DNA of 64,000 nt from an uncultured Candidatus Saccharibacteria bacterium (GTDB lineage Bacteria; Patescibacteriota; Minisyncoccia; UBA6257; 2-01-FULL-56-20): NCBI GenBank assembly GCA_964361595.1, contig CAYIAX010000004.1, positions 615-64,614 on the forward strand. The letters run 5' to 3'. The first letter of the stretch is position 1. Each line of letters opens with the position of its first letter. Below the pieces are notes generated by a model that ran no database searches, was not told the origin of the DNA, and worked only from the letters and a program-made list of their open reading frames with translations. This document shows positions 1,928 to 62,200 of this stretch, in pieces. The translations under genes and the position numbers were made by a program.

Positions 1928-3085
1928 ATGTTTATAACTTACGACAACAAAAAAAATGAGAAAGATATTCTCGAAAAAACCTCGAGAATTGAGCTGAAAA
2001 ACATATTGGGCAAAAGGGCAAAAAATAAGCTCATTCATGCCGACAATCTTTCTACTCTCAAAACTCTGCTCGACGATTATTCGGGTAAAGTTGATTTGAT
2101 TTATATTGACCCCCCATTCGCCACAAACGGACACTTCAAAATTAGCGAAGACAGGGCAAATACCGTAAGCAGCAGCAACGGTGATGCCATCGCATACAGC
2201 GATACATTGGTCGGCGCCGACTTTTTGGAATTTCTGCGTGAGCGCCTGGTTTTTCTGCGTGAACTTTTATCGGAGCGCGGGTCAATCTACCTTCATATTG
2301 ACTACAAAATTGGGCATTATGTAAAACTCATCATGGACGAAGTCTTTGGCCGCGAGATGTTCCGAAACGATATTACGCGTATCAAATGCAATCCCAAGAA
2401 TTTTGACAGGAAAGCGTACGGCAATATTAAGGATTTAATACTCTTTTATTCAAAGTCGGCTGCGCCGACGTGGAATGACCCGCGCGTTCCTTTCACGGAA
2501 GAAGATAAAGAGCGTTTATTCAAGAAACTGGATAAAGGCGGACGACAATATACAACTATTCCACTCCATGCCCCCGGAGAAACTTCTAGTGGCAATACCA
2601 GCAAAGAATGGAAAGGAATGAAGCCGCCTAAAGGCCGCCATTGGCGGACTGATCCGGCGGTTTTAGAAGAATGGGACAAGCAAGGATTGATTGAATGGTC
2701 GGTTAACGGTGTTCCACGCAAAAAAATCTTCCTTGATGAAAATGAAGGCAAAAAAATGCAGGATATCTGGGAGTTCAAAGACCCGCAGTATCCGCAGTAT
2801 CCAACCGAGAAAAACTTGGATTTACTAAAGTTTATTATTGAGGCCTCATCAAGCGAGGGCGATTTGGTGCTTGATTGTTTCGCCGGCTCCGGCACAACTC
2901 TGGTTGCCGCCCAAACGCTTAATCGCAACTGGATCGGGATTGATAAATCGGAACAAGCAATCAAAGTTGCAAAAAAAAGATTAGCGGGTTTGCCGAACAG
3001 CTTATTTTCAAAAGCTGAATATGAGTTTTTAGAAGAAGAAAATTATATCGAAGTTCCTAAAGAATCTTTTACTCAAGCCATCTAG
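1928..3085 (+). CDS. site-specific DNA methyltransferase, beta-class amino-MTase (N6-adenine or N4-cytosine)
   Basis: Motif IV IDPPF is near the N-terminus and motif I DCFAGSGTT near the C-terminus; the IV-before-I order defines the beta class. Confidence 0.85.
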   Translation: MFITYDNKKNEKDILEKTSRIELKNILGKRAKNKLIHADNLSTLKTLLDDYSGKVDLIYIDPPFATNGHFKISEDRANTVSSSNGDAIAYSDTLVGADFLEFLRERLVFLRELLSERGSIYLHIDYKIGHYVKLIMDEVFGREMFRNDITRIKCNPKNFDRKAYGNIKDLILFYSKSAAPTWNDPRVPFTEEDKERLFKKLDKGGRQYTTIPLHAPGETSSGNTSKEWKGMKPPKGRHWRTDPAVLEEWDKQGLIEWSVNGVPRKKIFLDENEGKKMQDIWEFKDPQYPQYPTEKNLDLLKFIIEASSSEGDLVLDCFAGSGTTLVAAQTLNRNWIGIDKSEQAIKVAKKRLAGLPNSLFSKAEYEFLEEENYIEVPKESFTQAI

Positions 3086-3190
3086 TTAATGTGAGCTACC
3101 CCAAATCCTTACCCGCCAGTTTTTGGGCCTGGAATTGCCGGTCGTGTGCGAGACGATTAAGCGAGCTTTAAGCGGAAAAGGCTTGAGGGC

Positions 3191-3236
3191 TTTGCGCGAA
3201 AATTAAGCGACTTCCGATGTCCAAATATTACGCAAT
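3191..3236. terminator. perfect 15-bp inverted repeat (gacttccgatgtcc...gggacatcggaagtc) downstream of the R-M cassette
   Basis: Palindrome seen directly in the sequence. No U-tract, so terminator function is uncertain. Confidence 0.3.
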
Positions 3237-3326
3237 TTCGGGACATCGGAAGTCATTAAATTAGCTCGCAATCCCTGTTATTTCGTGCTAGAATAAGTGT
3301 GCCGCCAAAGCGGCATTCTTCAACTC

Positions 3327-6311: not shown

Positions 6312-6388
6312 CCATCAACTAATTACGAATATCATACGAATAAACGAATTTGTATATTCGTAAAGATTCGATATTCGTTGATAAAAAT

Positions 6389-21141: not shown

Positions 21142-21224
21142 GGTTCGCGAATAATGAAAATTCGCATTATTTGCAAATATTCGCGTTATTCGCGATTACT
21201 CCTAAATTCATTTATCCTAAAGAG

Positions 21225-33258: not shown

Positions 33259-33642
33259 ATGCGATTACTCGGTATCAACATTCCCGACAATAAAGCGATC
33301 GAAGTTTCGCTTACTTATATTTATGGAATCGGCCGCGCGCAGAGCCGGCGCGCTTTGGCCGCAGCAAAGGTAGGTTTTGAAAAACGGACAAAAGATTTGA
33401 ATGCTGAAGAGGTCAATAAATTGAAAACGTGGATAGAAAAAAATTGCCACATCGAAGGCGATTTGCGCCAACAGATCCGCCGCAACATCCAGCGGCTGAA
33501 GGAGCTCCAAACCTATCGCGGCAGCCGCCATGCGCGCCGCCTGCCGGTCCGTGGCCAGCGCACACGCACCAATTCCCGCACTGTTCGGGGCAATGTCCGC
33601 AAGACCGCAGGCAGCGGCAAGCGCAAGGTGGAGTTGAAGTAA
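33259..33642 (+). CDS. rpsM: 30S ribosomal protein S13
   Basis: MRLLGINIPDNKAIEVSLTYIYGIGRA... Confidence 0.95.
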   Translation: MRLLGINIPDNKAIEVSLTYIYGIGRAQSRRALAAAKVGFEKRTKDLNAEEVNKLKTWIEKNCHIEGDLRQQIRRNIQRLKELQTYRGSRHARRLPVRGQRTRTNSRTVRGNVRKTAGSGKRKVELK

Positions 33643-33767
33643 TCCCTCACCCTTTAACGATTTCCAACATGACTAAATTCAGTTTAAAAATTTCGTTCTC
33701 TAATCAAGGCAACATGAAAGAAATTGCAGTTTTTAAGGTCGCGAAGCAGATCGCTAAAGGGTGAGGG
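33643..33767 (+). repeat. TIR-flanked ~125-bp intergenic element, ribosomal-protein type, copy 1; contains 16-codon leader uORF 33714..33764 and ends ...agggTGAgggATG at the rpsK start
   Basis: TIRs tccctcaccctttaacgat / atcgctaaagggtgaggga. uORF MKEIAVFKVAKQIAKG with its stop TGA 3 nt before the rpsK ATG. Confidence 0.85.
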
Positions 33768-34220
33768 ATGGGCAAGAAAAAAATCGCACAACAAACCGCC
33801 GAAGAGGCGCTGAAGGAAAAAAACGAGCAGGACATTGCGGTGGCCAAGGCTTCGGTGGTCAAGAAAGCCAAAAGCGTTGATTCCGGCCGCGTTTATGTTA
33901 ATGCTTCATATAATAATACGGTGATTACCGTGACTGATCTGCAGGGCAATGTAATAACCTGGGCTTCGGCGGGATCAATCGGTTTCTCGGGACCCAAAAA
34001 GGCTACCCCATTCGCGGCTTCTAAGATCGTGGCCGTGATCGCGGAGAAACTCAAGAATTTGGGAGTGATGAATTTGGAGATCCGGGCTAGGGGCATCGGC
34101 GGCGGCAGGGATTCGTCTATCCGTTCCTTTGCCAACCAGGGTTTCAATATCACCTCCTTGAAAGATGTAACCCCGGTACCGCATAATGGTCCTCGGCCGC
34201 GTAAAGTCAGGCGCGTATAA
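33768..34220 (+). CDS. rpsK: 30S ribosomal protein S11
   Basis: VYVNASYNNTVITVTDLQGNVITWASAGSIGFSGPKKATPFAA... Confidence 0.95.
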   Translation: MGKKKIAQQTAEEALKEKNEQDIAVAKASVVKKAKSVDSGRVYVNASYNNTVITVTDLQGNVITWASAGSIGFSGPKKATPFAASKIVAVIAEKLKNLGVMNLEIRARGIGGGRDSSIRSFANQGFNITSLKDVTPVPHNGPRPRKVRRV

Positions 34221-34345
34221 TCCCTCACCCTTTAGCGATTTCTAACATGACTCAATTCAGTTTAAAAATTTTGATCACTATAAAAGGCAACATGAAAGAA
34301 ATTGCAGTTTTTAAGGTCGCGAAGCAGATCGCTAAAGGGTGAGGG
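34221..34345 (+). repeat. TIR element, ribosomal-protein type, copy 2 (uORF 34292..34342)
   Basis: Near-identical to copy 1, with the same TIRs and uORF MKEIAVFKVAKQIAKG. Confidence 0.85.
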
Positions 34346-34960
34346 ATGAGATATCCTAAAGAAAAAAAAGAACGCTCGTTGGGCGAGCGGCTACAGCTCA
34401 AAGGGGAGCGCTGCCGGTCACCCAAATGCGCCATGGTGCGGAAGCCGTATCGGCCCGGCATGCATGGACACAAGCGGCAGCGAAAGATGCTGTCTGATTT
34501 CGGCCGCCAGATCAAAGAAAAGCAGAAATTCAAGTGGAGCTATGGGATTGACGAGCGGAACCTGCGCCATATCTTCGAACGCGCCGAACGGAAATCAGGT
34601 TCAGTCGCTTCGCAATTTTTAAAACTTTTGGAATTGCGTTTGGATAACGTAATCTTTCGTTTAGGTTTTGCCGCGTCGCGGTCGATGGCGCGCCAGCTCG
34701 TGAACCACGGGCATGTTATGGTTAACGGACGGCGGGTCAAATCTCCCGGTTTCGAGCTTAAGCTTGGAGATATAATCTCGGTTCGTCCGTCTTCGGTTAC
34801 AAAGTCGGTTTTCAAGAATTTAAAAGAGGAACTTTCGAAGTATACGCCCCCGGCATGGCTTAGCATTGATGCCGACAAGTTTGAAGGCAAAATTGTTTCC
34901 GCTCCCGATGAAAATATGCCTTTTGAAGTAAATTTATTGGTCGAATCATTTAGCAAATAA
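34346..34960 (+). CDS. rpsD: 30S ribosomal protein S4
   Basis: Zn-ribbon N-terminus (CRSPKCAMVRKPYRPGMHG) and the S4 domain (LELRLDNVIFRLGFAASRSMARQLVNHGHVMVNGRRV). Confidence 0.95.
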   Translation: MRYPKEKKERSLGERLQLKGERCRSPKCAMVRKPYRPGMHGHKRQRKMLSDFGRQIKEKQKFKWSYGIDERNLRHIFERAERKSGSVASQFLKLLELRLDNVIFRLGFAASRSMARQLVNHGHVMVNGRRVKSPGFELKLGDIISVRPSSVTKSVFKNLKEELSKYTPPAWLSIDADKFEGKIVSAPDENMPFEVNLLVESFSK

Positions 34961-35728: not shown

Positions 35729-35857
35729 AAAATCCCTCACCCTTTAGCGATTTCCAACATGACTAAAACCAGTTTAAAAATTTTGATAACTATAAAAGGC
35801 AACATGAAAAATCATGGAGTATTTAAGGTCGCGAAGCAGATCGCTAAAGGGTGAGGG
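35729..35857 (+). repeat. TIR element, ribosomal-protein type, copy 3 (uORF 35804..35854, MKNHGVFKVAKQIAKG)
   Basis: Same TIRs; diverged interior. Confidence 0.85.
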
Positions 35858-36211
35858 ATGCGGCATTTAAAGAAAGGAAAAAAGTTTCACAGGTTGAAGG
35901 GAGAACGGCGTTCTTTTTTGCGCAACTTGGCGAATGATTTGCTTCGTAGCGGCAAAATCGAAACTACGGAAACCCGCGCCAAAGCCATCCGGCCTTTAGT
36001 TGAGCGCATGGTCACCATCGCCAAGCGGCAGGATTTGGCTGCGCGCCGCCTGCTCCTTGCTCGTTTGCACAATGAGCGGATTGTCCATAAGCTTTACGAT
36101 GAAATCGCTCCGCGTTATCAAGGCCGCCCGGGCGGATATCTGCGGATCACGAAGTTGGGCCGCAGCAAGAAGCGCGACGGCAGCCGGCTGGCCACCATAG
36201 AATTTGTTTAA
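35858..36211 (+). CDS. rplQ: 50S ribosomal protein L17
   Basis: MRHLKKGKKFHRLKGERRSFLRNLANDLL... Confidence 0.95.
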   Translation: MRHLKKGKKFHRLKGERRSFLRNLANDLLRSGKIETTETRAKAIRPLVERMVTIAKRQDLAARRLLLARLHNERIVHKLYDEIAPRYQGRPGGYLRITKLGRSKKRDGSRLATIEFV

Positions 36212-36336
36212 TCCCTCACCCTTTAGCGATTTCTAACATGACTCAATTCAGTTTAAAAATTTCATTCTCAAAGCAAGACAACATGAAAAATCATCGAGTT
36301 TTTAAGGTCGCGAAGCAGATCGCTAAAGGGTGAGGG
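36212..36336 (+). repeat. TIR element, ribosomal-protein type, copy 4 (uORF 36283..36333, MKNHRVFKVAKQIAKG)
   Basis: Same TIRs, ends at the rplM ATG. Confidence 0.85.
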
Positions 36337-36684
36337 ATGGATTACCACTTGGATGCTAAAAATAAGCACTTGGGGCGCTTGGCGTCGGAAATCGCCATGA
36401 TTCTCCAGGGCAAGCGGAATGCAAGCTACGACCCTGCTCGTTTGAGCGGTGATCGCGTGTTCGTAAAAAATTATCGCGGCGTGGTTGTGACCGGCCGCAA
36501 GGCGGAGCAAAAAACCTATTATCGCCACACCGGCTACATGGGACATTTGAAGGAAGCCAAATACAAAGAAGTATTTGCGAAGGACCCCAAGCGCGTCCTG
36601 CGCGAAGCAGTGCGCCGGATGCTGCCGAAAAATTTTTTAAACCAGCGCCGTCTAAACCAACTTATTTTCATCGATGGCGAATAA
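36337..36684 (+). CDS. rplM: 50S ribosomal protein L13
   Basis: LGRLASEIAMILQGKRNASYDP...VFVKNY. Confidence 0.95.
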   Translation: MDYHLDAKNKHLGRLASEIAMILQGKRNASYDPARLSGDRVFVKNYRGVVVTGRKAEQKTYYRHTGYMGHLKEAKYKEVFAKDPKRVLREAVRRMLPKNFLNQRRLNQLIFIDGE

Positions 36685-46439: not shown

Positions 46440-47957
<1,518 letters not shown>

Positions 47958-48896
47958 TTACTTCAACGACTCAGCTCCGGCGGTGATTTCGATGATTTCT
48001 TTCGTGATCGCGGCCTGGCGAGCTTTGTTATAAACGAGCGTGAGCTCCGACCTAAGCTCATTCGCGTTATCGGATGCGTTTTTCATGGCCACGCGGCGGG
48101 CGGCGTGCTCGGACGCGTTCGCCTCGAGCACCAAATGGTAAATTTCCATGAGTGTGAGGTGGGCGGCGAGTTCGTCGAGGATCTCCTGCGGCGAAGGTTC
48201 GATCAGATAATCTTCGTTGCCTGTTTGCGCCTCCGGTTGGTCAAGTTGCTTGAAATTGGCGAAGCGTCCGGTTTTAGGAACAAGTTCGCGGAGAGTATTT
48301 AAGAGCGCTTCGGCGCTCGCGGGCAAGAGCTCGCGAAAAACCATGTCTTGCCGGAGCGCGCTTTCAAAGCGCATTGAGAAGACGAGGACGCGGTCCCAGT
48401 CGCCCCGGAGAAATCCTTCCGTCAAAAATTTGGCCAGAGGTTCGATTTCCGCGATTGTGGTGTAATCGCCGAAGCGGGTAAATGCGCGTTTAAAGTTCGG
48501 CGTCCGGCGTTCGAGATAGGCGGCGGCTTTTTGGCCGACGGCGATGTACGCGTAAGCGGGATCGGCAAAATCTATTTTCTCCGCCCGGATGAATTTTTCC
48601 ACTGCGCGGATTACAGCGCTGTTGAACGAACCGGCCAGCCCCTTGTCTGAAGTGACGACCACAATCGCCGTGGTTTTAACGCCGCGTTTTTCGAGAAGCT
48701 TAGGCAGGTGCGCGGTTTCGAGACGCGTAAGCCGCGCGAGAAAATCCAGCGCCGAAAAAGCGTAAGGCCGCGAAGCCAAAGCGATCTCCTGGCTCTTTCG
48801 CATCTTGGTTGCCGCCACGAGCTCCATGGCTCGCGTGATCTGGTTTATGTTTGTCACCCCTTTGAGGCGGCGTTTAAGGTTTTGCAAAGACTCCAT
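47958..48896 (-). CDS. atpG: F0F1 ATP synthase subunit gamma
   Basis: MESLQNLKRRLKGVTNINQITRAMELVAATKMRK..., ending ...ITKEIIEITAGAESL. Confidence 0.9.
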   Translation of the reverse strand: MESLQNLKRRLKGVTNINQITRAMELVAATKMRKSQEIALASRPYAFSALDFLARLTRLETAHLPKLLEKRGVKTTAIVVVTSDKGLAGSFNSAVIRAVEKFIRAEKIDFADPAYAYIAVGQKAAAYLERRTPNFKRAFTRFGDYTTIAEIEPLAKFLTEGFLRGDWDRVLVFSMRFESALRQDMVFRELLPASAEALLNTLRELVPKTGRFANFKQLDQPEAQTGNEDYLIEPSPQEILDELAAHLTLMEIYHLVLEANASEHAARRVAMKNASDNANELRSELTLVYNKARQAAITKEIIEITAGAESLK

Positions 48897-49020
48897 CCCT
48901 CACCCTTAGAGAATTTGCGCAGAGCGCAAACTCTCGATATGTTTTGAGCTAAAGACCTTTATCTCCAAATAAGTTCTTGTGAAAATGTGTTTCATGAAAT
49001 GATTCTCTAAGGGTGAGGGA
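48897..49020 (-). repeat. TIR element, atp type, copy 1, upstream of atpG (29-codon uORF 48906..48995; ...ctcTAAgggTGAgggATG)
   Basis: TIRs tccctcacccttagagaat / attctctaagggtgaggga. uORF MKHIFTRTYLEIKVFSSKHIESLRSAQIL. Confidence 0.85.
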
Positions 49021-50550
49021 TTAAGAGTTGGCGATCAGGAATTTCTCGATCGCGGCTTTGAGCTTCGCTTCAGTCTCCTCGATCAAGTTTCCGGTTTCGC
49101 GAATCGGCTTCAGGATGTCTTCGTCGTGCAGTTTGGCGATGTACTCAAGGAAAAGCCCTTCCATTTTTTTCGCTTGCTCGATTTCAAAACGGTCGAAATG
49201 GCCGTTCAAGACCGCGTAGAAAATCGCCACCTGCTTTTCGCAAGCCAAGGGCGCCTGGTCGTCCTGCTTTAAAATTTCGGTGATGATTTGTCCCTGGCGG
49301 ATGCGTTTTTTCGTGGCTGCGTCCACGTCCGAGGCGAATTGTACGAAAGCCTGGAGTTCGCGGAACTGCGCCAAGGCGTAGCGCAAACCGCCGGCGACTT
49401 TCTTCATCGCTTTGGTTTGAGCTGCGGAGCCCACGCGCGAGACCGAGAGTCCAACGTTTACGGCCGGCCGGATGCCTTGGTAGAAAAGATCGCTTTCCAA
49501 ATAAATCTGGCCGTCGGTAATCGAAATTATGTTCGTCGGAATGTAAGCGGTAATGTCGCCGAGTTGCGTTTCGACAAGGGGGAGTGCCGTCAAGGATCCC
49601 CCGCCTTTCTCTTTTGATAGTTTGGCGGCGCGCTCTAGCAAGCGGGAGTGGAGGTAAAAAATATCGCCGGGGTAAGCTTCGCGGCCGGGCGGGCGGCGGA
49701 GCAAGAGCGAGATCTGCCGGTAAGCCCAGGCATGTTTTGAAAGGTCGTCGTAAACAACAAGCGCGTCTTCGCCGCGGTCGCGGAAATATTCGCCTACGGC
49801 GCAGCCGGCAAAGGGTGCCAGATACCACAAGGCGGCGGGCGACGAAGCCGAAGCGGAAACTACAATAGTATATTTCAAGGCGTCATATTGCTTGAGGGTT
49901 TCCACAATGCGGGCAACTTTCGCTTCTTTCTGTCCTACGGCTACATATATACAGATAGGCGTTTTGCGGCCGGTATCAGAGCCCTGGTTAATTATCGTAT
50001 CGAGCGCCACGGCGGTTTTGCCGGTCTGGCGATCGCCAATGATAAGTTCGCGCTGGCCGCGGCCGATCGGGATCATTGAATCTATGCTCTTTAATCCGGT
50101 ATGGAGCGGCGTGTTCACACCTTCGCGTTCCAAAACGGATGGCGCGCGATTTTCCAAAGGGTAGCGTGTTTGTTCTTGGTTTTTAAAAATTGGGCCCTTG
50201 CCGTCCAGGGGATTGCCCAGGGGATCGATCACGCGGCCAACCATTTCTTTGCCGACCTGGAGCGAAAGCACTTGGCCGGTGCCCTTAACGGTATCTCCGC
50301 TTTTTATTTCCAAATAATCATCGAGCACCAAAGCGCCGATTGTTTCTTCTTCGAGGTTTAAAGCCACGGCGCGGCGCGGACCCGCATGAGTTTCGATCGT
50401 GAGGAGCTCCTGGCTCGCCGCTTGCTTCAAACCGGTCAATTTTACAATGCCGTCGCCGACTTCAATTATGCGGCCCACGGCTTCCCAGTCGGTCTTATCC
50501 TTATAATCGGCAATTTCACGCTTAAGTTTTTCGATGATTTCGTAAGACAT
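49021..50550 (-). CDS. atpA: F0F1 ATP synthase subunit alpha
   Basis: P-loop [18 protein letters not shown], and ...[23 protein letters not shown]... Confidence 0.95.
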
Positions 50551-50639
50551 TGGTTAGAATTTAGAACCTAGCCGCCTTGGCGCCCGCTCCGACTCGGAGA
50601 CGAGGCGAGAGCCTCGCCCCGTTGCGACGGGGCGGGAGC

Positions 50640-51038
50640 CTAGAATTTAGAATTGGTTGCGGAGAATAATTTTTGCAGTTTTCGTTTAAGCGACATGTCG
50701 AGTTCGCGTTCGTCATTTACGGTGATCCTTACTCCGGCCACGAGTTCAGGAAGAATTTGTTCTTCGACTTTATCTTTGGGTTTAAGAAGCGTATGAAAAA
50801 GTTTGCGCGCGGGCTGGGGTAAGGGGCGGGCGGAAGCAACCTCAATTTTATTTATGCCCTTGCGGGCGTAAAACATTTTTTCGGTCGCCGCGGCGATTTT
50901 AGGCAAAAGGTATGCGTCGCCGTTTTGCCTCGCTAAAGATATGGCGCGGCGGATGTACTCTTCCTGCTTCACCTGGCTCTCTGTGCTTGCGAGCACCGCG
51001 CTTAAAGCTTCGGCATAAACCCTGGGAGAAAACTTCAT
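50640..51038 (-). CDS. atpH: F0F1 ATP synthase subunit delta (OSCP-like, short)
   Basis: Position between atpF and atpA; helical N-domain (YAEALSAVL...). Confidence 0.7.
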   Translation of the reverse strand: MKFSPRVYAEALSAVLASTESQVKQEEYIRRAISLARQNGDAYLLPKIAAATEKMFYARKGINKIEVASARPLPQPARKLFHTLLKPKDKVEEQILPELVAGVRITVNDERELDMSLKRKLQKLFSATNSKF

Positions 51039-51162
51039 CCCTCACCCTTAGAGAATTTGCGCAGAGCGCAAGCCCTCAATCTGTTTTGTCCTGGGGACCT
51101 TTAGCTCCGAATAAGTTCTTATTAAAATGTTTTTCATAAAGTGATTCTCTAAGGGTGAGGGA
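51039..51162 (-). repeat. TIR element, atp type, copy 2, upstream of atpH (uORF 51048..51137)
   Basis: Near-identical to copy 3. uORF MKNILIRTYSELKVPRTKQIEGLRSAQIL. Confidence 0.85.
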
Positions 51163-51663
51163 TTATTTTCCGGCAATTTCCTCTACTGCTTTCTTGATCA
51201 AGGCCTCATCCACGGCCGTGGGAGCAAGTTCGACGGTGCGAATCAGGGCTGCTTTGACCAGGGCCGCCGCTTCTTGTTTCATCGCCCGGCGGGCGGTTTC
51301 CGCCTTACCGGCAATAATCTGATCCGTCTGGGCCAGCATCTCGGTTTCTTTGGTTTTGGCGGCTGCGAGGAGTTCGCCCTCGAGCCGCTTGGCCTTGGCT
51401 TCGGTGGCTTTAATTACAAGCATGGCCTTTTCATCAGCTTCTTTCATTTTGGCTCGCTCGAGCTCCTGGATTTCGCCTAACCGGACTTCGGCCTCTTTGG
51501 CTTTGGTGAGGCCCGCCTCGATTTTCTCCCGCCGGTCCTTGAGGATTTTTAAAATCGGCTTGTAAGCGAAAACGCGCAAGACAACTAGAAGCAGCAAGAA
51601 GTTCACCGCTTGGCTTAAAAGCAATTTCCAGTCGAGGCCTAATTGGTTGATGAGTTCAGACAT
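51163..51663 (-). CDS. atpF: F0F1 ATP synthase subunit b
   Basis: N-terminal TM helix (LLLSQAVNFLLLLVVLRVFAY) plus a long charged helix. Confidence 0.8.
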   Translation of the reverse strand: MSELINQLGLDWKLLLSQAVNFLLLLVVLRVFAYKPILKILKDRREKIEAGLTKAKEAEVRLGEIQELERAKMKEADEKAMLVIKATEAKAKRLEGELLAAAKTKETEMLAQTDQIIAGKAETARRAMKQEAAALVKAALIRTVELAPTAVDEALIKKAVEEIAGK

Positions 51664-51745
51664 AATGCGATGCGAATGATGCGAATCCCATGCGAATACT
51701 GCGAATAATTCGTTGTATTCGCGTGCATTTGCGGATTAGCATTGC
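51664..51745. repeat. AT-type hairpin element (tgcgaat x4, then their complements) between atpE and atpF
   Basis: gcgaatgatgcgaatcccatgcgaatactgcgaataattcgttgtattcgcgtgcatttgcggattagcattgc. Confidence 0.5.
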
Positions 51746-51973
51746 TTAAACGAACTTCAAAATTAACGCGACGACCAGCGCATAAATGGCGATCGCTTCG
51801 GCGAAGGCGATCGCGAGAATCATGGCCGTCTGCACCTTGGGGGCCGCTTCGGGGTTGCGGCCGATCGCATCCGTACCGCGCGAGCCGATCATGCCGATCG
51901 CGATGGCTGGCGCAATCGCACCGACAGCAATCGTGATCATCGGCGCCCACAAACGTACTGTTTCTAGTTCCAT
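51746..51973 (-). CDS. atpE: F0F1 ATP synthase subunit c
   Basis: Two-TM hairpin with a conserved E in helix 2 (AIAFAEAIAIYALVVALIL) and the GRNPE loop. Confidence 0.85.
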   Translation of the reverse strand: MELETVRLWAPMITIAVGAIAPAIAIGMIGSRGTDAIGRNPEAAPKVQTAMILAIAFAEAIAIYALVVALILKFV

Positions 51974-52087
51974 GTAGTTAAAATTCTAAGTTTGCAATTT
52001 TGCAATTCTCAAAAAATTAAGTTGAGTTTTGAAAATTGAAAATTGGGAATTGGAAATTGTGTTTGCGACCTTTTAATGACCAGAATT

Positions 52088-52825
52088 CTATTCATGTGCA
52101 ATGGCGGTGGCAACGAAGACGAGGGACAGCATTGCGAAGACGAAAGCTTGGATGAAACCCACGAAAGTTTCCAAGAAGAGAAACGGAAGCGGAATGAAGT
52201 AAGGAGTGAGGAAAGCGATGATCGTGAGCAAGATTTCGCCGGCAAAGATGTTGCCGAAGAGCCGGAACGAAAACGAGATCAGTTTAGCAACTTCGGAGAT
52301 TAATTCAAGTATGCCGATGAAAAAATCGATCGGTCCCCTGAAATTAAAAAATTTACCCGCGTGCTTTACAAAACCGATGACGGCAATACCCAGAATATTC
52401 ACGGTGACGACGGAAATGACGGCCAAGGCGAGCGTGAAATTGAGATCGCTGCCGGGCGAGCGCAAAAGCGGAACGCGCCCCTCCGCTGTTTCAAAAATGA
52501 CCGAGCCGATGCCGGGCAAAAGCCCAAACCAGTTCGCAGCGAGAATGAAAAGGAAAACGGTGCCCACAAAGGGCAGGTATTTTTCAGCTCGCTCACGGCT
52601 GCCAAGGATTCCTTCCATGAGCCCGAGCGCTCCCTCAATCGCAGTTTCAAAAGTATTTTGAATGTAGCCGGGGACGAGGACTAACCGCCGCCGGCCAATT
52701 GCGGCGAGCGCGGCTAGGATAACCATGACTAGAGTTGAAAGCAAAAGCGCGTTCGTGACGGGAAAGCCGCCGAGGCGGAAAAGTTCTTCGGCGCGGAGTG
52801 AAATATGTATGCCAGATGATTCCAT
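52088..52825 (-). CDS. atpB: F0F1 ATP synthase subunit a
   Basis: Polytopic; RLFGNIFAGE contains the essential Arg. Confidence 0.85.
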   Translation of the reverse strand: MESSGIHISLRAEELFRLGGFPVTNALLLSTLVMVILAALAAIGRRRLVLVPGYIQNTFETAIEGALGLMEGILGSRERAEKYLPFVGTVFLFILAANWFGLLPGIGSVIFETAEGRVPLLRSPGSDLNFTLALAVISVVTVNILGIAVIGFVKHAGKFFNFRGPIDFFIGILELISEVAKLISFSFRLFGNIFAGEILLTIIAFLTPYFIPLPFLFLETFVGFIQAFVFAMLSLVFVATAIAHE

Positions 52826-52949
52826 CCCTCACCCTTAGAGAATTTGCGCAGAGCGCAAGCCCTCAATCTGTTTTGTCCTGGGGACCTTTAGCTCCGAATA
52901 AGTTCTTATTAAAATGTTTTTCATAAAGTGATTCTCTAAGGGTGAGGGA
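52826..52949 (-). repeat. TIR element, atp type, copy 3, upstream of atpB (uORF 52835..52924)
   Basis: Same TIRs and uORF as copy 2. Confidence 0.85.
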
Positions 52950-53321
52950 TTCCCGCCGGACGCCGAAAGCGGCGGCAGGAGAGTAATTATAGGAAAAAGC
53001 GGCTGGAAAAGCAAAACCGATTACAATCTAAAAAAGATAAGGCCGGCGCGGGAGAAAAGCTTGCGTCGGCCTCGGATGTTCGGGTCGTATAGACCCGAGT
53101 GGTCCCCAAAAGGAGGGGCAGCAGCGCAGCAAAAGCTAGCAACCGGGGTTATTTAGAAAATACTGGAACTGGCTTAATTATAGCGCTTGCATTTCGTTTA
53201 TGGAAGGGGAATGTGGATAACCCCAAAGGGCTTTACCGGGATTCAAGCATAAGGAAGCCCCGACGTGCATGGTTGCACCGGGGCTTTTAGCGGAAAATGT
53301 TTGGTGGGAAATACTTCTTAT

Positions 53322-53350
53322 ATCATACCAGTATACAAAATCTTTGTCAA
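53322..53350 (-). promoter_or_regulatory. minus-strand sigma-70-like promoter: TTGACA, 17 bp, TATGAT, reading toward the atp operon (~500-nt leader)
   Basis: Plus strand shows atcata (53322-53327) and tgtcaa (53345-53350), i.e. reverse complements of the hexamers. Confidence 0.45.
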
Positions 53351-53432
53351 GCGCGCTTCCGACGGTATTTGATTGAGTGAATACATAGTTTCCATGATAC
53401 GGAGGCTTGCGCTAACAGGGTTGGATTATCCT

Positions 53433-55247
53433 CTAAACTTTCCTATGTTTAGGCGTAACCCAAAAGCCCAGCCTGAACTTGCCGCCGAGCATCAGCCGCG
53501 TTTGCGCATCAAGACCCGGAAAAGCGCCGAAGACAATCAGAGTTATGGGGATCAAGAGCCACTGCAACGCATACAGGAAATAATGCCACCGGCGGAACCA
53601 GGCCGGCTTGGGGGGCAAAAGCAGTATGGCGAGTATAGCTGAACTGGCGATACCCAACATCGCCAAGCTCATAATGAAGCTTGTAATCTGCGGCAGGCTG
53701 TAAGACAGAAGCGAGTAGCTGAAAGCCTCGCCGCCCAGCCAGAGCGGCAGCCAGCCCAAAGCAAAAATCATGAGGGCGTTCGTCGCCCAGGAATGAAAAC
53801 CTTCGATCGTAATCAATGACCAGTACCATTTTTTCCGCAAGGGTATTTTTTTATCGTATAAAAACCCTTGCCCGCGATCCGAATCTACCAATCCATCCGA
53901 AGTATCCGAATGGCCTTGCTGAATAGGCATATCCGAATAATTCGGGTTGTTGATTCGGTAAGTATTCGGAGCATTCGAATGTAATTCGGATTTTTCGGAT
54001 TGCCTACCACAGAGCATATAAGGAATGTTTTCCGCGCCCCAGCCCCAGCGCCGGTGCTGGCGGTAGGTATTTTTCATCGTACTCCAAAAAGTCGGGCCGA
54101 CGTTTGCATCCATGGATACGGGATAGGATAAGGGCTCCACGCGGAACTCGCCGTTGTAGCGCAGAAATCCCTGCCAGAACACACGCGAGTCTTCGGAAAC
54201 GACATCCTTGTGCCAGAATCCCATATCAACAAGCGCCTGGAAAGGGATTGATTGGGACGAAAAAGATGTGAGCCGTTCCGGCCTCGCCTGCTGCATCATT
54301 TGCCAGAAGGTGGAGGAGAACGAAACTACGCGCGCGAAAGCGGGAGCCTGGTAAATATTGTTAGTGAAGAGCGGCACCGGTTGGTAGATTGCGCGCAGCC
54401 TGTCTTCGGCATTTAAAAATGCATAGGTGAGCCGTCCGAAGTAATCGGGGAAAATTTGCGTGTCAATGTCAAAAACGGAAACCAGAATATTTTCGTAGGA
54501 GAGCGCTGATTCACGCTGACTAGACGCTGACTTGCGCAGAACCTCGCTGGCGGTATCGTTGGTCTGCGTATAGTCTGCGTAAGTCCGCGTATTGACCAAG
54601 GGGTCAATAATTAGCCGCTTGGCTTCTTTGGCGGCCCAGGCTTCGTTCGAACCTTTGCCGGGAATTTCTCCGGGCAAGCCGGCCGGGTGTTTCGTAGTTA
54701 GAAACCTGCGGAAGCGCGCGCCGAATTCCGCTTTGATTTTTTTCGCCGTTTCCGCGGCTTCCTCGCCGCCGCTTGCTTCCGTCGCCAAAACCACGATGAA
54801 TTTGTCCGTGGGATAATTGGCTTTAACCAAACTTCCAAAACTTTCTCGCACGAGCGGATGGGGTTCTTTGTGTATAGGGAAGATGATTAAGTGAATGATT
54901 TCTTTCCAGGATATGCGATTCGAATCTACTAATTCATCCGAATGCTCCGATTCAACAATTCGGGGCATTCGGATGTCATTCGCCTGCCTGCCGGTCAGGC
55001 AGGGATTTTTAGGATCGCTTTGGAGCTTTTTTAATTCCGCGAGCCAATCCACCTTAAGATTGCGCTTCATCTGCCGGAAAGTCGCGCTCAAATGGAGCGA
55101 GAGGTAAACGGTTTTGAGGAGCCAGTAGGTGTCAAAAAGAATGATGAAGATGGCGATAAAAGCGGGAGTGGCCCAGGAGAGGAAAACCATGAGTCCGATC
55201 GTGAGCCAAGCCAGCGCTCCGGGAATAATTTCAAAAAAGCGGTACAT
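53433..55247 (-). CDS. processive family-2 glycosyltransferase (cellulose/chitin-synthase-like) with in-frame GC-type and AT-type element inserts
   Basis: N- and C-terminal TM bundles; DXD (VSVFDIDTQ); QxxRW motif (YRQHRRWGWG). Inserts KSASSQRESALS, NAPNTYRINNPNYSD... and IRMPRIVESEHSDELVDSNRISW. Confidence 0.6.
   Translation of the reverse strand: MYRFFEIIPGALAWLTIGLMVFLSWATPAFIAIFIILFDTYWLLKTVYLSLHLSATFRQMKRNLKVDWLAELKKLQSDPKNPCLTGRQANDIRMPRIVESEHSDELVDSNRISWKEIIHLIIFPIHKEPHPLVRESFGSLVKANYPTDKFIVVLATEASGGEEAAETAKKIKAEFGARFRRFLTTKHPAGLPGEIPGKGSNEAWAAKEAKRLIIDPLVNTRTYADYTQTNDTASEVLRKSASSQRESALSYENILVSVFDIDTQIFPDYFGRLTYAFLNAEDRLRAIYQPVPLFTNNIYQAPAFARVVSFSSTFWQMMQQARPERLTSFSSQSIPFQALVDMGFWHKDVVSEDSRVFWQGFLRYNGEFRVEPLSYPVSMDANVGPTFWSTMKNTYRQHRRWGWGAENIPYMLCGRQSEKSELHSNAPNTYRINNPNYSDMPIQQGHSDTSDGLVDSDRGQGFLYDKKIPLRKKWYWSLITIEGFHSWATNALMIFALGWLPLWLGGEAFSYSLLSYSLPQITSFIMSLAMLGIASSAILAILLLPPKPAWFRRWHYFLYALQWLLIPITLIVFGAFPGLDAQTRLMLGGKFRLGFWVTPKHRKV
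53878..54003. repeat. AT-type element (CCGAAT/ATTCGG units; core gaatctaccaatccatccgaa) in-frame in the GT2 gene
   Basis: Shares a 20-nt core with the copy at 54913-54985 (gaatctactaattcatccgaa). Confidence 0.6.
54503..54592. repeat. GC-type palindromic element in the GT2 gene
   Basis: gcgctgattcacgctgactagacgctgacttgcgcagaacc...ggtctgcgtatagtctgcgtaagtccgcgtattgac. Confidence 0.7.
54913..54985. repeat. AT-type element, second copy in the GT2 gene, plus hairpin cctgcctgccggtcaggcagg
   Basis: cgattcgaatctactaattcatccgaatgctccgattcaacaattcggggcattcggatgtcattcg. Confidence 0.55.
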
Positions 55248-56220: not shown

Positions 56221-57072
56221 ATGCAGGATAAATCTATTCCAGATTCCAGATTCCAGATTCTAGATTCTCGCCGGGGTTTCACCATCCTTGAGCTTTTGAT
56301 TTTCACCGCGATTTTTACCGGCGCGGCGATGGCGTTTATCGCGATCCTGGTGGCGGTTACGCGCGTCCACGTCCGCCAGAACGCGATGGCCGAGGTAACG
56401 CAGCAAAGCCAATTCCTGCTGACCACGATTCAGCGCTACGTCGAACAGTCGAGCGCCATCGAAATGGCCAACGATTCGACGACGAGCACCTTAAAGCTTC
56501 GCATGGCTTCGACGACCGGCGATCCCGCCTATATTTATTTGTCGGGAACGACCGTCTACCTGAAACAAACGGAGAGTGGCACGGCCGAGCCTTTGACTTC
56601 GGACAAGGTGCAGATAACAAGTTTGAATTTCGCCAAGCGGTCTAATCCCGGCGGCCACGATTCGGTGAGCGTGGCCTTTCTGATGAACTATAACGCGACG
56701 AACATTCAGCACCGCTTCACGAATGAAATTGATACTGCGATCGGCCGGGTCTCCGCGGCCACTTTTGATTCGAACATTTTGCCTTCGACCGGGAACACTT
56801 ACCGCCTGGGCACGGCGGCGGCGGATTGGCAGGCGATCAACAACACGATTTATTTCAGCGGCTCGAACGTGGGCGTGGGGGTTGCCTCGCCAGGCCAGAC
56901 GCTCGAGGTAAACGGCGGCGTGCGCTTGAATACGACGACCGGGAAGCCGACTTGCGACTCTACCCAGCGCGGCACGCTGTGGGTAACGCAGTCCGCGAGC
57001 GGCACCAAGGATTATGTCCAGGCCTGTATTCGCAGTTCTACGAGCACGTTTTACTGGGCAACTTTAGATTAG
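56221..57072 (+). CDS. type IV pilin-like protein (class III signal peptide) with a long C-terminal domain
   Basis: Prepilin motif RRGFTILELLIFTAIFTGAAMAFIAILV (G|FT(L/I)xE). C-terminal SGSNVGVGVASPGQTLEVNGG echoes the giant-protein repeat. Confidence 0.7.
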   Translation: MQDKSIPDSRFQILDSRRGFTILELLIFTAIFTGAAMAFIAILVAVTRVHVRQNAMAEVTQQSQFLLTTIQRYVEQSSAIEMANDSTTSTLKLRMASTTGDPAYIYLSGTTVYLKQTESGTAEPLTSDKVQITSLNFAKRSNPGGHDSVSVAFLMNYNATNIQHRFTNEIDTAIGRVSAATFDSNILPSTGNTYRLGTAAADWQAINNTIYFSGSNVGVGVASPGQTLEVNGGVRLNTTTGKPTCDSTQRGTLWVTQSASGTKDYVQACIRSSTSTFYWATLD

Positions 57073-57209
57073 AACCTAGAAGCTAGAATTCAGAATCTAG
57101 AATCGCTTTTAAAACCTAGAAGTTAGAATTTAGAACCCAGAAGAAACATGATCGAAACTTTTTAATCATAAATTCTAAATTCTAGGTTCTAGATTCTAGA
57201 TTCTGCACA
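57073..57209. repeat. TAGAAC satellite arranged as an imperfect large palindrome
   Basis: ttagaacctagaagctagaattcagaatctagaatc ... cataaattctaaattctaggttctagattctagattctg. Confidence 0.6.
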
Positions 57210-57548
57210 ATGACCAAATCTTTCAAGGAGCTTCTGGTTTGGCAAAAAGCCAAGGAATTAGCCGTTGAAATTTATAAGCTGACGGAAGAATTTCCAAACT
57301 CTGAAATTTATGGTTTAAGCAGCCAGATGCGAAGAGCTGTTATTTCGATTTCTTCTAATATCGCGGAAAGCTACCAGCGTTTTCATAAAAAAGAAAAAGA
57401 CCAATTACTTGCAGTGGCTTACGGTTCGGGCGCGGAGCTTGAAAGCCAGATTGAAATAGCAAGGGAGTTGTTCCCTAGCTTAAAATATGAAAAAGCAGAT
57501 GCGATTCTTTTGGAAGTTATGAAAATGCTTAACAATTTCCTGCATTAA
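57210..57548 (+). CDS. four-helix-bundle protein (TIGR02436 / '23S rRNA intervening-sequence protein' family; Avd-like fold)
   Basis: KELLVWQKAKELAVEIYKLTEEFPNSEIYGLSSQMRRAVISISSNIAESYQRF...AYGSGAELESQIEIAREL. Confidence 0.8.
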   Translation: MTKSFKELLVWQKAKELAVEIYKLTEEFPNSEIYGLSSQMRRAVISISSNIAESYQRFHKKEKDQLLAVAYGSGAELESQIEIARELFPSLKYEKADAILLEVMKMLNNFLH

Positions 57549-58205: not shown

Positions 58206-58326
58206 GAACCTAGAATTTAGAACCTGGAATCTGGAAAATACGAATTATGCTATTACTAAAAAAGTCGATCGGTTTTTAAAGTTTTAAATTCTAGATTCTG
58301 AATTCTAGGTTCTAAATTCTAATCTC
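58206..58326. repeat. TAGAAC satellite, forward and inverted arrays
   Basis: gaacctagaatttagaacctggaatctgg ... aaattctagattctgaattctaggttctaaattctaatc. Confidence 0.55.
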
Positions 58327-58773
58327 ATGTTAAATAAAAAACTTTTAGGAATTTTAGTCGCGGTCATCGTTGTTCTCGTTCTGGTCGGCGTCTGGGTGGG
58401 GGTTAAACTTACCGGAAACGGCGCTGACGAGCCCTCGGAATATTCGGCGGTTTACCTTTCAAGCGGCGATATTTATTTCGGCAAACTCTCCTGGTTCCCG
58501 TGGCCCAAAATTAAAAATGTTTGGTACATCCAGCGGGGAGTGGACGCGCAGAATCAGCCCCAGCTGGGACTTGCGCCTTTCACTTCCGTTTTCTGGGGTC
58601 CGGTTGACGAAGTTTCCTTAAATCCCAAAGAAATTCTTTTTTGGACGCGCTTGCGCGAAAGCAGCCAGCTTGTGCAGGCCTTCAGGAACCCGCAAGCGGT
58701 CCAGCCGCCGCCCGCGAATCAGCAGGTTTCACCAGGGCAGCAGCAAAATCCCACAAGCGGAAACCCTCAATAG
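58327..58773 (+). CDS. hypothetical membrane-anchored protein, Q/P-rich C-terminus
   Basis: TM helix LLGILVAVIVVLVLVGVWVGV; C-terminal low complexity (PQAVQPPPANQQVSPGQQQNPTSGNPQ). Confidence 0.5.
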   Translation: MLNKKLLGILVAVIVVLVLVGVWVGVKLTGNGADEPSEYSAVYLSSGDIYFGKLSWFPWPKIKNVWYIQRGVDAQNQPQLGLAPFTSVFWGPVDEVSLNPKEILFWTRLRESSQLVQAFRNPQAVQPPPANQQVSPGQQQNPTSGNPQ

Positions 58774-58820
58774 TAAGTAGAAAGTGGTAGGTAGTAGGTG
58801 GAATATGGGACGATAAAAAC

Positions 58821-59192
58821 ATGACCGAAGGATCAAATATAAAATCCTTTCGGGATTTAAACATTTGGCAGAAAACAAAAGCCTATGCAGTAGCTTTGTA
58901 CAAAGTCACCGAGCAATTTCCTCGATCCGAGCTTTACGGGTTAACCAATCAAATCCGGCGCGCGGCGGTTTCTATGCCTGCGAATATCGCCGAAGGATTT
59001 AGGAGAAAGACAAAAAAAGAAAAACTGCAGTTTTTACGGATTGCCTATGGGTCAGGAGCTGAATTGGAGACACACCTCGAAATCAGCCGCGACTTGAATT
59101 ATTTGCCGGAAACATCGTATGCAAATCTGGCGCTTGAGTTGGAAAGCATTATGAAAATGATGAATTCAGCTCTCCGCTCTCTGGAAAGCTGA
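58821..59192 (+). CDS. four-helix-bundle protein (TIGR02436 / Avd-like), second copy
   Basis: FRDLNIWQKTKAYAVALYKVTEQFPRSELYGLTNQIRRAAVSMPANIAEGFRR...AYGSGAELETHLEISRDL. Confidence 0.8.
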   Translation: MTEGSNIKSFRDLNIWQKTKAYAVALYKVTEQFPRSELYGLTNQIRRAAVSMPANIAEGFRRKTKKEKLQFLRIAYGSGAELETHLEISRDLNYLPETSYANLALELESIMKMMNSALRSLES

Positions 59193-59291: not shown

Positions 59292-62200
59292 ATGAACCAG
59301 CAAGCTCGGACATACCGGAGAAAATTAGCCTGGAGTTTAATCAGCTTAATTTCGCTCGCTATTCTACCACCTACCACCTACCACCTACTACCTACCGCAA
59401 ACGCCTTCACCGGCCCGTCCTCGGGCGGCGGCGTGGGCACGGGCGCGATCGGCGTGAATTCGGCCAATAACTTGAGCGTCGGCACCTCGACGCCGCTTGC
59501 CGAGACCAAGTTTTTGATCGTGGCTTCCAGCTCGGCCGACAGCGCGAACTTTGCGGTTAAAGTCAGCTACCCCTTGAGTACGCCGATCTTGTGGGTGCGG
59601 AACGACGGCAAGGTCATGATCGGCACCTCCACGCCCATTTCCGCCGCGGCTCTGACGGTGCAGGGCGACATTTATGCAACCGGCAACTTGTATGGCACTC
59701 TTTCCGGCGCAGTTTTAGCTGCAAACGTTACGTCCGACGTCTTCGGCCGCCTGCAGGGCAACGGGAATTTCGCTTTTCCGGCCTCGCTAGGTGTCGGCAC
59801 TTCTTCGCAGGCGGGACTGCCGCAGGAACTCTCGGTTTATGGCGATGCGTATGTAACGGGCAGCGTCGGCATCGGGACGACGGGGCCGGGGGCAAAGTTA
59901 CAAGTTCTTGGAGGGAATGTGCTTGTTGGTGGCTATGGTACTGGAACGGAATATGGCATTCTGTTGTCGCCAAGCGATGCTGGTAACTACCACTGGATAG
60001 CTCAAATTGCTGGTACTAAGTTGCAGATTGGCTCAGGAAACGTTATTGGTACATCTCCTCAAGTTACTATTGACAACTCCGGCAACGTTGGCATCGGGAC
60101 GACGGGACCGAGTTCAAAGCTGGATGTTAAGGGAAGCGCAGGAGCATTGACCGATTACGGCATCGCCACGATTGAAGAACCAACTCAAAATAGAGGTATT
60201 TCTTTTGGATTCGATACTACAAATGACTGGACATGGGTTTACAGCCGAGATGTTGGAGTGGAAAGTAAACCAATAAGATTTAATGATTTATTTTTTGTTG
60301 GCAAAGGAAACGGCAACGTCGGCATCGGGACGACGAATCCGAGTGATTTATTAACGGTGGTGACAAGTGCCCAGGGGACTGGCGGTATGTCAATTCAACA
60401 AGCTACCAATGAGGGACTATGGTTCAGGCCGGATAATTCTGCTGGCGCGTCCAATCCTCTCGTTCAGGCCGGGGACAAGAGTATTATATTTAGTGCTGGG
60501 TCTATCGAAACAGGTAATCTCGTCATTGCGCCTTGGTCGGCTAGCAGTTATGGAGTACGTATAACGAATACCGGCAACGTCGGCATCGGGACGACGAATC
60601 CGAACGCTATGCTGGATGTTGCGGGTACGATTAACGGGCGGAACTACGCCGTTCCAGATACGGGAGCAACGTCGCAATGGGCAAAGCTAGGCACATTTAC
60701 TGCAGGGCAGGCTGGCCATACAATCCGTGTCGTCGCATACATCCACAACGGTTTTAATGCTGTAAACTCTCAAGATAGCGTTTATACCATAACTTTCAAG
60801 ACCTCTAACGGTTCAAGCGTAGACGGCAACGGCTTTGCAGGAAATGGAAGCTGGTACGCAATCGGTTTCAATTCTCAAATCCCATCTGGCAATATCAAGT
60901 GGAAGGCGAATGCCGCCGGGGTGAGCGCGACCTCATATGATCTCTATATTCTCTTGCCCATTTTTACCACTAATAGCCACTACGCTGTCTCCGTGGTTTC
61001 AACCGCAAGCTGGACAAATGTCGGATCAATTGGTCAGACTGACCCAGGCATTGCGAGCGCCTCGGTACTTATACCGACACCAGAGTTCAATGTGCCTTAC
61101 GGCAGCGTCGGCATCGGGACGACGGGGCCTGCCACTAAACTCGAAGTAGATGGGGATACGACACTTCTAGTTCCGTCTACTGTTGCCACTGCGACGACGG
61201 ATTATGCATTAAGGCTTTTCGACAATAGGACGAGAACGGCCAATAACGCTCAAGCGATTATATTTCAAAATGCTTCAACAGAGCATTTCGCGCGGATTGA
61301 AGTTACTGATTTGGGTGGTGGCGGTAACGCGGCGGCACGTATGGATTTCAAGGTAAACAGTGCCGCAGAGGGGACTAATCCAACCTCGCGCCTGACAATT
61401 CTAAATAGCGGCAACGTCGGCATCGGGACGACCAACCCCACGAGCACCCTCACTGTCGTCGGCGAAATCAAAACCACCTCCGGCGGCGTCCGCTTCCCCG
61501 ACGCCACCCTCCAGACCACGGCCTACACCGGCACTTCCACCCAGGTGGTCTCGGCCGCGAACGTCTCGGCCGACGTCTTCGGCCGCCTGCAGGGCAACGG
61601 GAATTTCGCTTTTCCGGCCTCGCTCGGCGTCGCCACCTCGACGCAGGTCGGCTTGCCCCAGGAACTTTCGGTATATGGCGATATCTATGCCTCTGGCAAC
61701 GTCGGCATCGGGACGACGAGTCCAAACGCGGGATTGCAAATTAGCGGCGGCAACGTTCATGTGCAGGGTTCTTTCAGCAACAGTAATCAGTTAAGAATTA
61801 CCGGAACGGGAGCCGCGGGTACGGGCAACGATGCGATTCTCCGTTTTGATACGTCCAGCAATAGCCGAGTGATATATGTGGATGAAAGTGATTCAAACAA
61901 AATGAAGTTTACTGGCGGTGGAGCAACGGATTTGGTCACAATAGATAACAGCGGCAATGTCGGCATCGGGACGACGGGGCCAAACCGAAGGCTTACGATA
62001 GGAAATCCTGGAGCGGTAAGTACCAATACACAACTGCTCTACCTTAAACAGCCCAATGATTATGGTTACTCATTCAATATCGATGATTCTGTTACTGGTC
62101 GTATGTATCTCCAAGGAGTCAATGCTGGTGTTGAATCAAACATTATGACTCTTGACAGAACAACCGGCAACGTCGGCATCGGGACGACGGGGCCGGTGAC

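Follow-up and report, generated by a model that had tools for sequence, protein, structure and literature searches.

A MITE-like hairpin repeat flush with start codons in Patescibacteria operons, and a putative role in translational coupling

Introduction

Small hairpin-forming inserts and repeats have been described in several guises in bacteria, and it is against these that we set the element reported here, a repeat of 118-140 nucleotides present seven times in a 64,000-nucleotide stretch of DNA from an uncultured Candidatus Saccharibacteria bacterium (contig CAYIAX010000004.1 of assembly GCA_964361595.1; the whole stretch is called the window below). Correia elements duplicate TA on insertion and are known from Neisseria only. 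Intervening sequences of ribosomal RNA are removed by RNase III, and in their classical form they lie mostly in 23S rRNA; to our knowledge, none occurs between protein-coding genes. Where one reading frame feeds ribosomes to the next, a stop codon 3-10 nt before the second start, or an AUGA overlap of the two, is typical of reinitiation. Correia elements (also known as CREE or NEMIS) are co-transcribed with their neighbours, and the RNA hairpin formed by their repeats affects the expression of adjacent genes (PMC2649163, PMC10969869), with promoters, IHF binding and RNase III as the routes through which they act (PMC2649163). ERIC sequences are imperfect palindromes of ~127 bp in transcribed intergenic regions of operons, where they influence the fate of mRNA, some of them with open reading frames (ORFs), and the Rickettsia palindromic elements (RPE) are small palindromic repeats for which reading frame matters to the tolerance of insertion (PMC10969869).

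The hosts of our element are of interest in their own right, since the Patescibacteria represent a very large and mostly uncultured part of bacterial diversity, with reduced ribosomes and many lineages that do without Shine-Dalgarno (SD) pairing (PMC9297842). A 20-bp helix that covers start codons within essential operons (ATP synthase, ribosomal proteins) and is tolerated there, together with an ORF that ends at the covered start, offers a concrete and testable model for SD-independent coupling in these organisms.

Copies of the element in the window

On the minus strand, the window carries three copies of about 125 nt, each closed by a perfect 20-bp inverted repeat (ATCCCTCACCCTTAGAGAAT / ATTCTCTAAGGGTGAGGGAT) and each ending on the start codon of an ATP synthase gene, such that the ATG of atpG, atpH or atpB takes its first two bases, A and T, from the end of the repeat (the downstream genes match the Pfam families ATP-synt (gamma), OSCP (delta) and ATP-synt_A (subunit a)). 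The first copy reaches from the atpA stop to the atpG start (48895..49021, core CCCTC..GAGGG at 48897-49019), its hairpin bounded by the last A of TAA at 49021 and the AT of the atpG ATG at 48896-48895, and the second reaches from the atpF stop to the atpH start (51037..51163, core 51039-51161). In both, the repeat's first A is the last base of the upstream TAA, of atpA and atpF respectively, and because the ends of the repeat thus share bases with TAA and ATG the gap from stop to start is fully occupied by the element. The third copy (52824..52950, core 52826-52948) abuts the atpB ATG from within the operon's 5' leader; it has no upstream gene and its left flank reads GGGAAT.

Four related copies on the plus strand precede the ribosomal protein genes rpsK (S11), rpsD (S4), rplQ (L17) and rplM (L13). 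They extend from the S13 stop to the S11 start (33642..33769), from the S11 stop to the S4 start (34220..34347), up to L17 with AAA between the rpoA TAG and the element (35732..35859), and from the L17 stop to the L13 start (36211..36338). A search for TAAGGGTGAGGGA with at most two mismatches gave 14 matches in the window, exactly the two arms of seven elements, against 0.95 expected (0/100 shuffles reach 14), and the orientation relative to the host gene is the same in all seven.

A first-pass annotation of this DNA had regarded the three atp copies as a second subfamily of the ribosomal-protein type, ending at the starts of atpG, atpH and atpB, with a distinctive interior hairpin, a 29-codon upstream ORF (uORF) and near-identity between the atpH and atpB copies, and each part of that description is borne out. 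The two types have 13-nt ends in common and differ in stem extension and interior, the atpG and atpH copies each being ~61% identical to the ribosomal-protein type. Between the copies of atpH and atpB 126/126 positions agree, with unrelated flanks, so that identity stops where the repeat stops; the atpG copy is diverged, at 87.3% identity to that of atpH. All three contain the small hairpin TTGCGCTCTGCGCAA adjoining the 3' arm (48915-48929, 51057..51071 and 52844-52858, minus strand), and all three contain the uORF, which comprises 29 codons and a TAA (48906..48995, 51048..51137 and 52835..52924, minus strand) and would encode MKNILIRTYSELKVPRTKQIEGLRSAQIL in two copies, those of atpH and atpB, and MKHIFTRTYLEIKVFSSKHIESLRSAQIL in that of atpG. 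The TAA falls in the 3' arm in each case, and in the atpG copy it is 9 nt 5' of the atpG ATG and in the same frame. The ribosomal-protein copies have a uORF of 31 codons (33669-33764, 34247-34342, 35759-35854 and 36238-36333), with its TGA stop inside GGGTGAGGG. With the window copies oriented like their host genes and aligned, as had been proposed, the uORF ATG occupies a single alignment column across both subfamilies. The RNA of the atp copies is predicted to fold at -51.6 to -51.9 kcal/mol with z = -6.5 to -7.3, values that no shuffle equals; the atpG copy, at -51.6 kcal/mol, has the z of -7.3.

Relations among the four ribosomal-protein copies are tangled, since all three possible two-by-two groupings are found, each as a contiguous block of sites; the copies are mosaics and must therefore recombine with one another. 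At the element, short-read contigs from the same Hainich groundwater site either break off or collapse. In one of them (L117:9393-10001, compared with window 51038-53433) the atpB copy is joined to the atpH copy with 1787 bp (atpB, atpE, atpF) missing, either an assembly collapse over identical repeats or a real recombinant, and two further contigs of the site begin within the element. A strong promoter-like site (TTGACA-17-TATGAT, 11/12 matches, with TG before the second hexamer) is seen at 53322-53350 on the minus strand, ~370 nt upstream of the atpB copy, and implies a long leader.

Distribution across genomes

The expectation that more copies would turn up elsewhere has proved right. We scanned one genome per GTDB species for the exact pattern CCCTCACCCTT-N88-118-AAGGGTGAGGG, so that the family-wide sample is defined by exact ends, and we found at least 119 matches in at least 116 DNA stretches. 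Genes in the other loci were called simply as the longest ORF. Among the matches listed, 59 have an AT-rich interior and 60 a GC-rich one. The AT-rich class belongs almost entirely to metagenome-assembled genomes (MAGs) of Patescibacteria, including Jorgensen-, Harrison-, Lipton-, Brenner- and Berkelbacteria, Saccharibacteria, Paceibacterota and Minisyncoccia, with a few MAGs under other labels (binning is taken as labelled). Family ends read AT-CCCTCACCCTT…AAGGGTGAGGG-AT, followed inward by 5-7 further covarying base pairs, and interiors vary greatly from lineage to lineage. Some positions that the pattern left free to vary are constant all the same, the flanking A-U and U-A pairs at 94-96% and an A-U pair at stem position 21 in 49/50 copies.

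The placement seen in the window recurs throughout the family. AT stands on both flanks of 44/59 listed AT-rich copies and an ATG directly abuts one end in 45/59, and for 42 of the 51 listed copies that could be oriented an ORF begins at this ATG that either runs for at least 76 codons or is truncated by the locus end. Among listed copies an upstream stop codon most commonly ends 1 nt before CCCTC. The element is placed almost only where its right end rebuilds a start codon (…GGG-ATG), its left end often following a stop (TAA-T-CCC…). The first-pass annotation had proposed that the family targets start-proximal positions of the most highly expressed operons, and only the first half of that idea stands up well. 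Start-codon-flush placement is general, as these counts attest, but the downstream genes are mixed: S19, L18, S11, S4, L9, an S30AE (hibernation factor family) gene, EF-G, a MraY-type transferase and PheT, together with a type II secretion protein F, a pilin and glycosyltransferases. Moreover, some copies lie 8-25 nt from the ATG and two lie inside 16S rRNA genes. Flush placement may, on the evidence of where copies lie, reflect either targeting or the survival of particular insertions. We also note a subfamily (L030:7250-7384, L071:3621-3755 and L058:6841-6974, the last from MAG H41-bin049) with an interior promoter-like TTGATT-N17-TATAAT facing the 3' arm, whose copies are 8-14 nt 5' of the next ATG and not flush with it.

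Of the two copies in rRNA, one (L056 4208-4333) is inside an Rfam SSU match at 2785-4410 and the other (L047 3378-3501) has sequence of 16S helix 44 on both sides. Their flanks read CCCGAAT|…|ACACGG, their interiors are highly structured (GGCCGYAAGGCC hairpin) and lack the ORF, and both 16S genes end in the canonical GGATCACCTCCTTTCT. Insertion of a hairpin at an rRNA helix tip is the mark of an rRNA intervening sequence, a mark borne by these two copies only, not by those of the window. They link intergenic repeats with the unexplained short rRNA insertions of Patescibacteria. The 16S gene in L047 has, in addition, an insertion of ~900 nt at about 2440-3335 in which a LAGLIDADG-type motif (…LDPHYISGFVDGEGCF…) can be read, and which resembles a group I intron that carries a homing endonuclease.

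The GC-rich class is built of nested palindromes (CCCTCTCCC…GGGAGAGGG units) with flanks CC…GG in Sphingomonas, Mesorhizobium, Parvibaculum and relatives (L001, L002, L004, L008, L014 and ~55 other loci), and is probably an unrelated family that shares the 11-mer. One of its copies is in a prophage-like contig (L207:11896-12027). The sole match in a viral contig is of this alphaproteobacterial type, which is why we discarded carriage of the element by phages.

Comparison with close relatives

The comparison with relatives speaks against a leader that all of them inherit at the same positions. The relatives were obtained through L17 and AtpG homologues (a metagenome scan with the S4 protein gave only ≤47% identity). 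The nearest for the ribosomal operon have L17 proteins 79% and 77% identical. In L200 the element is absent, the S13-S11 junction being a bare TAATG overlap (AAATAATGG) and the other junctions spacers of 2-16 nt; in L202 and L204 the ribosomal-operon junctions hold spacers of 65-120 nt that are unrelated to it. For the atp operon, L208 and L209 (AtpG 66% identical) likewise have junctions without the element, and atpF and atpH of L209 overlap as ATGA. Relatives have hairpin spacers of their own, for example the TCTAATT repeats at three atp junctions in L209. Distant lineages nevertheless carry members of the family at these very junctions (S13-S11 in L023 and L049, S11-S4 in L034).

Because the closest relatives are without it at the same junctions, we take the element not to be a conserved operon leader, and read the pattern as that of a repeat which is gained, lost and homogenised rather than inherited. 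With proteins only 66-79% identical, an empty junction in a relative is equally compatible with gain in one lineage and loss in the other. The arrangement suggests insertion at a TAATG or AATG stop/start junction, TAATG being a classic overlap of this sort, possibly with duplication of AT; put differently, insertion may occur at the AT of (T/G)AATG, or the flush position may arise by selection after insertion. The copy between rpoA and L17 is compatible with an original TAGAAAATG. Were TAATG the target, it would still not be saturated, because two such overlaps in the window, at 5757 and 19243, are unoccupied.

By the measures applied to a generic miniature inverted-repeat transposable element (MITE), the element is small (118-140 nt, under the limit of about 500 bp) and codes for no transposase, with only the short uORF inside; its terminal inverted repeats are perfect over 20 bp in the atp copies and well paired in the family at large; it is dispersed, with similarity ending at the repeat ends among the seven window copies; and it is present at junctions that are empty in L200, L202, L204, L208 and L209. 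Its movement by transposition is an inference.

The upstream reading frame and the stem

To count uORFs, we asked for an ATG-initiated frame of at least 20 codons whose stop either comes no more than 13 nt before the host ATG or overlaps that codon as ATGA. Among the start-flush listed copies, 36/51 have one in the sense orientation and 6/51 in the antisense (p = 1.5e-9), and the asymmetry persists when interiors are clustered at 70% identity (25/36 clusters against 4/36, p = 6.5e-7). Across the family the uORF measures roughly 22-37 codons, and its stop is found in three registers relative to the repeat (TGA at -6, TAA at -12, TGA at -13) or in an ATGA overlap. The dN/dS of the frame is ~1 (0.98 for atpG against atpH, 0.6-3.2 among the ribosomal-protein copies). 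As judged from these comparisons, conservation lies in keeping a frame open through the 3' arm as far as the host start, and not in the peptide.

The stem itself is strongly maintained. Over 50 copies, 98% of basal stem cells are paired, and 89 cells are changed on both sides, against 21.6 in shuffles (0/500 reach this figure), with slid registers pairing at 36-56%. Next to the 3' arm, a large subfamily that includes the window's ribosomal-protein copies has an internal hairpin with a conserved loop (…GTCGC…), in which five of six stem pairs are changed on both sides and every wobble is U·G when read in sense, a hint that this hairpin folds in RNA. The atp type has a hairpin of its own at the same position.

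SD motifs (GGAG, GAGG, AGGA) precede 3/40 window genes and, in the other host loci (L009-L115), 6-10% of genes, a frequency of about chance level in both. This scarcity agrees with the reported loss of the anti-SD motif, absent in roughly half of Parcubacteria (PMC9297842). The sequence 5' of start codons, in the window as in the host loci, is A/T-rich and often reads …AAC(A)ATG. The 3' arm (AAGGGUGA…) looks like an SD sequence and the 5' arm like the anti-SD tail, but with SD motifs at chance level in the hosts the 3' arm is unlikely to serve as one.

How might the element work?

Our own inclination, held with some reserve, is that the element is a MITE-like, non-autonomous palindromic hairpin that buries the start codon of its host gene and restores translation through termination and reinitiation at its uORF. 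The geometry is that of uORF coupling, inasmuch as the upstream frame ends at or next to the main start and the A and U of the host AUG lie in the stem. Transcribed with the operon, the arms would form a perfect helix of ~20 bp that takes in this A and U and so would hide the AUG, in hosts that have essentially no SD sites; without SD pairing, a start codon has to be single-stranded to be used. The AU-rich interior would leave exposed a separate AUG, that of the uORF, and in keeping with this the predicted mean unpaired probability is 0.51 at the uORF AUG and 0.30 at the host AUG. Ribosomes on the uORF would melt the 3' arm and stop 3-10 nt before the host AUG, or overlapping it as AUGA, after which they could reinitiate or leave the AUG open for a new ribosome. 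Since translation of the uORF would deliver ribosomes to the host AUG, an insertion would be harmless to downstream expression, and coupling of this kind would explain why copies survive flush with the starts of essential operons and in one orientation.

Several observations sit awkwardly with this explanation. Fifteen of the 51 start-flush copies are without a long sense uORF, and a few seem to be inserted antisense. The mismatches of the basal stem (16 A·C, 13 G·U) are balanced and so fit selection on RNA or on DNA alike. The 11-bp core is invariant by design of the search, and because the pattern fixed it, its conservation across the phylum is ascertained rather than measured. The AT at the target could be a 2-bp duplication or part of the repeat end, and there is one clean empty site to judge by (the TAATG of L200, with L17 at 79%). 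Finally, neither a transposase nor a longer element with the same ends was found in the ~0.6 Mb of loci inspected, and no pair of ends lies 300-4000 bp apart in any of them, a weak test at that coverage.

What else could the hairpin be? It might be a processing signal, at which an RNase III-like nuclease cuts the ~20-bp helix, splits the transcript and leaves the downstream message a short leader (…GGGAUG). Such a leader would suit an SD-independent ribosome, and an insert in rRNA would be excised or trimmed by a cut of this kind. The perfect duplexes of the element, at 20-24 bp, have a length at which RNase III finds its substrates. A cut within the stem would likewise free the AUG, the two 16S copies lie at the tip of helix 44, many other intergenic spacers in the window and its relatives are hairpins too, and Correia elements in mRNA are known to be bound and cut by RNase III (PMC2649163, PMC10969869). 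We nonetheless think processing unlikely as the whole answer, and place it second to coupling because cutting leaves a sense-specific ORF that ends at the host ATG unexplained; the two may both operate. A host regulatory RNA, that is to say an operator bound by a protein or sensing a signal, which co-regulates translation and energy genes and is not mobile, seems less probable still. The conserved ends and biased orientation would suit it, as would the frequency of housekeeping genes downstream and an internal hairpin with a conserved GTCGC loop, covarying stems and U·G wobbles in the sense strand only. Against this, the same junctions are empty in the nearest relatives, identical copies occur at unrelated sites, copies are mosaic, the downstream genes are diverse, two copies are within 16S rRNA, and no Rfam family is matched: tRNAs alone pass at gathering scores, and at E up to 5 the only hits are chance-level ones to miRNA and SAM_alpha families, far under threshold.

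That the peptide of 29-31 residues is itself the product, and the repeat a duplicated mini-gene, strikes us as very improbable. ORFs of ~22-37 codons in 25/36 clusters, and a KG motif that recurs ~18 residues from the C terminus, might lead one to think so, but the KG reflects conserved AAAGG nucleotides, the frame relative to the conserved ends changes between subfamilies, and the ORF is missing from the rRNA copies as well as the 15 already mentioned; we rejected a conserved peptide on the changing frames and a dN/dS of ~1. To chance or an assembly artefact we give next to no credence. All that can be said for it is that repeats disturb short-read assemblies, whereas the 14 arm matches far exceed expectation and dozens of independent assemblies, made in different projects, share this architecture. 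We also considered programmed ribosomal bypass of the T4 gene 60 type and rejected it, as the flanking genes are separate, complete proteins and matching take-off and landing codons are absent.

Returning to coupling, a bolder version, which we offer as a speculative and rather doubtful generalisation, would see these hairpins as portable couplers, mobile throughout the phylum in SD-less Patescibacteria, that insert at the AT of TAATG junctions and at rRNA helix tips and place the stop next to the start at a helix base, with the uORF, RNase III cutting or both delivering ribosomes to the following gene. If it were true, portable couplers and the other hairpin spacers described below would constitute a distinct way of organising expression from multi-gene transcripts. 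On a more practical level, the 13-nt ends are a simple marker that explains contig breaks and mis-joins in Patescibacteria MAGs, and that could help to annotate true starts.

Other hairpins and neighbouring genes

The window contains further spacers that fold as hairpins, with z of -2.7 to -5.8, at 57073-57209, 58206-58326, 6312-6388, 21142-21224, 47844-47957, 51974-52087 and 51664-51745. Their left arm consists of short tandem repeats (for instance period-7 TAGAAnn) and their right arm of the complements (TTCTAnn just 5' of ATG), and hairpin spacers appear to be general in the operons of these genomes. Period-7 arms also pair over distance, 58773-58801 with 59367-59395 (565 nt between) and 57060-57103 with 58288-58331 (1184 nt between), enclosing whole genes, one of them Avd-like. 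The plus-strand genes at 57210-57548 and 58821-59192 belong to the 23S_rRNA_IVP / bAvd families, as Pfam matches for the same genes in L117 indicate, and adjoin a gene of at least 1732 residues that runs off the end of the window; this may be the neighbourhood of a diversity-generating retroelement.

Comparison with known systems

In the literature on MITEs, Patescibacteria or the candidate phyla radiation, Shine-Dalgarno sequences and rRNA insertions, we found no description of this element. Neither 'start codon' nor 'rRNA' nor 'candidate' occurs in a 2024 review of prokaryotic MITEs, where 'translational' appears twice, for protein fusions and for the IS2 frameshift rather than for coupling (PMC10969869).

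The Correia elements resemble ours most, being ~100-155 bp long with long terminal inverted repeats, many copies and no transposase. The ends of our element, ATCCCTCACCCTT, are unrelated to theirs, its flanks are AT and not TA, and it spans many deep lineages of Patescibacteria; moreover, neither a start-codon-flush position nor a coupling uORF has been reported for CREE. ERIC shows no sequence similarity and no reported abutment on start codons, and what has been described for it in Yersinia is decay that depends on RNase E rather than any coupling of translation. RPE are found in frame inside genes and form part of the protein, in contrast to an intergenic element whose ORF is separate from both neighbours. 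With rRNA intervening sequences the likeness lies in a hairpin of ~100-150 nt that replaces the loop at an rRNA helix tip with patchy distribution, represented here by the two 16S helix 44 copies.

With regard to mechanism, the nearest parallel is attenuation of the erm type and translational coupling in general, where a short uORF is combined with a helix that sequesters the main start and translation of the leader opens the helix. The difference is that the module here is a portable repeat, found at many unrelated genes in hosts without SD sites, with no evident inducer or stalling signal. A MITE-like palindromic repeat is thus already known in kind; what is new is its exact placement from stop to start, the conserved coupling ORF, the SD-free hosts, its presence in both mRNA and rRNA, and its breadth across the Patescibacteria.

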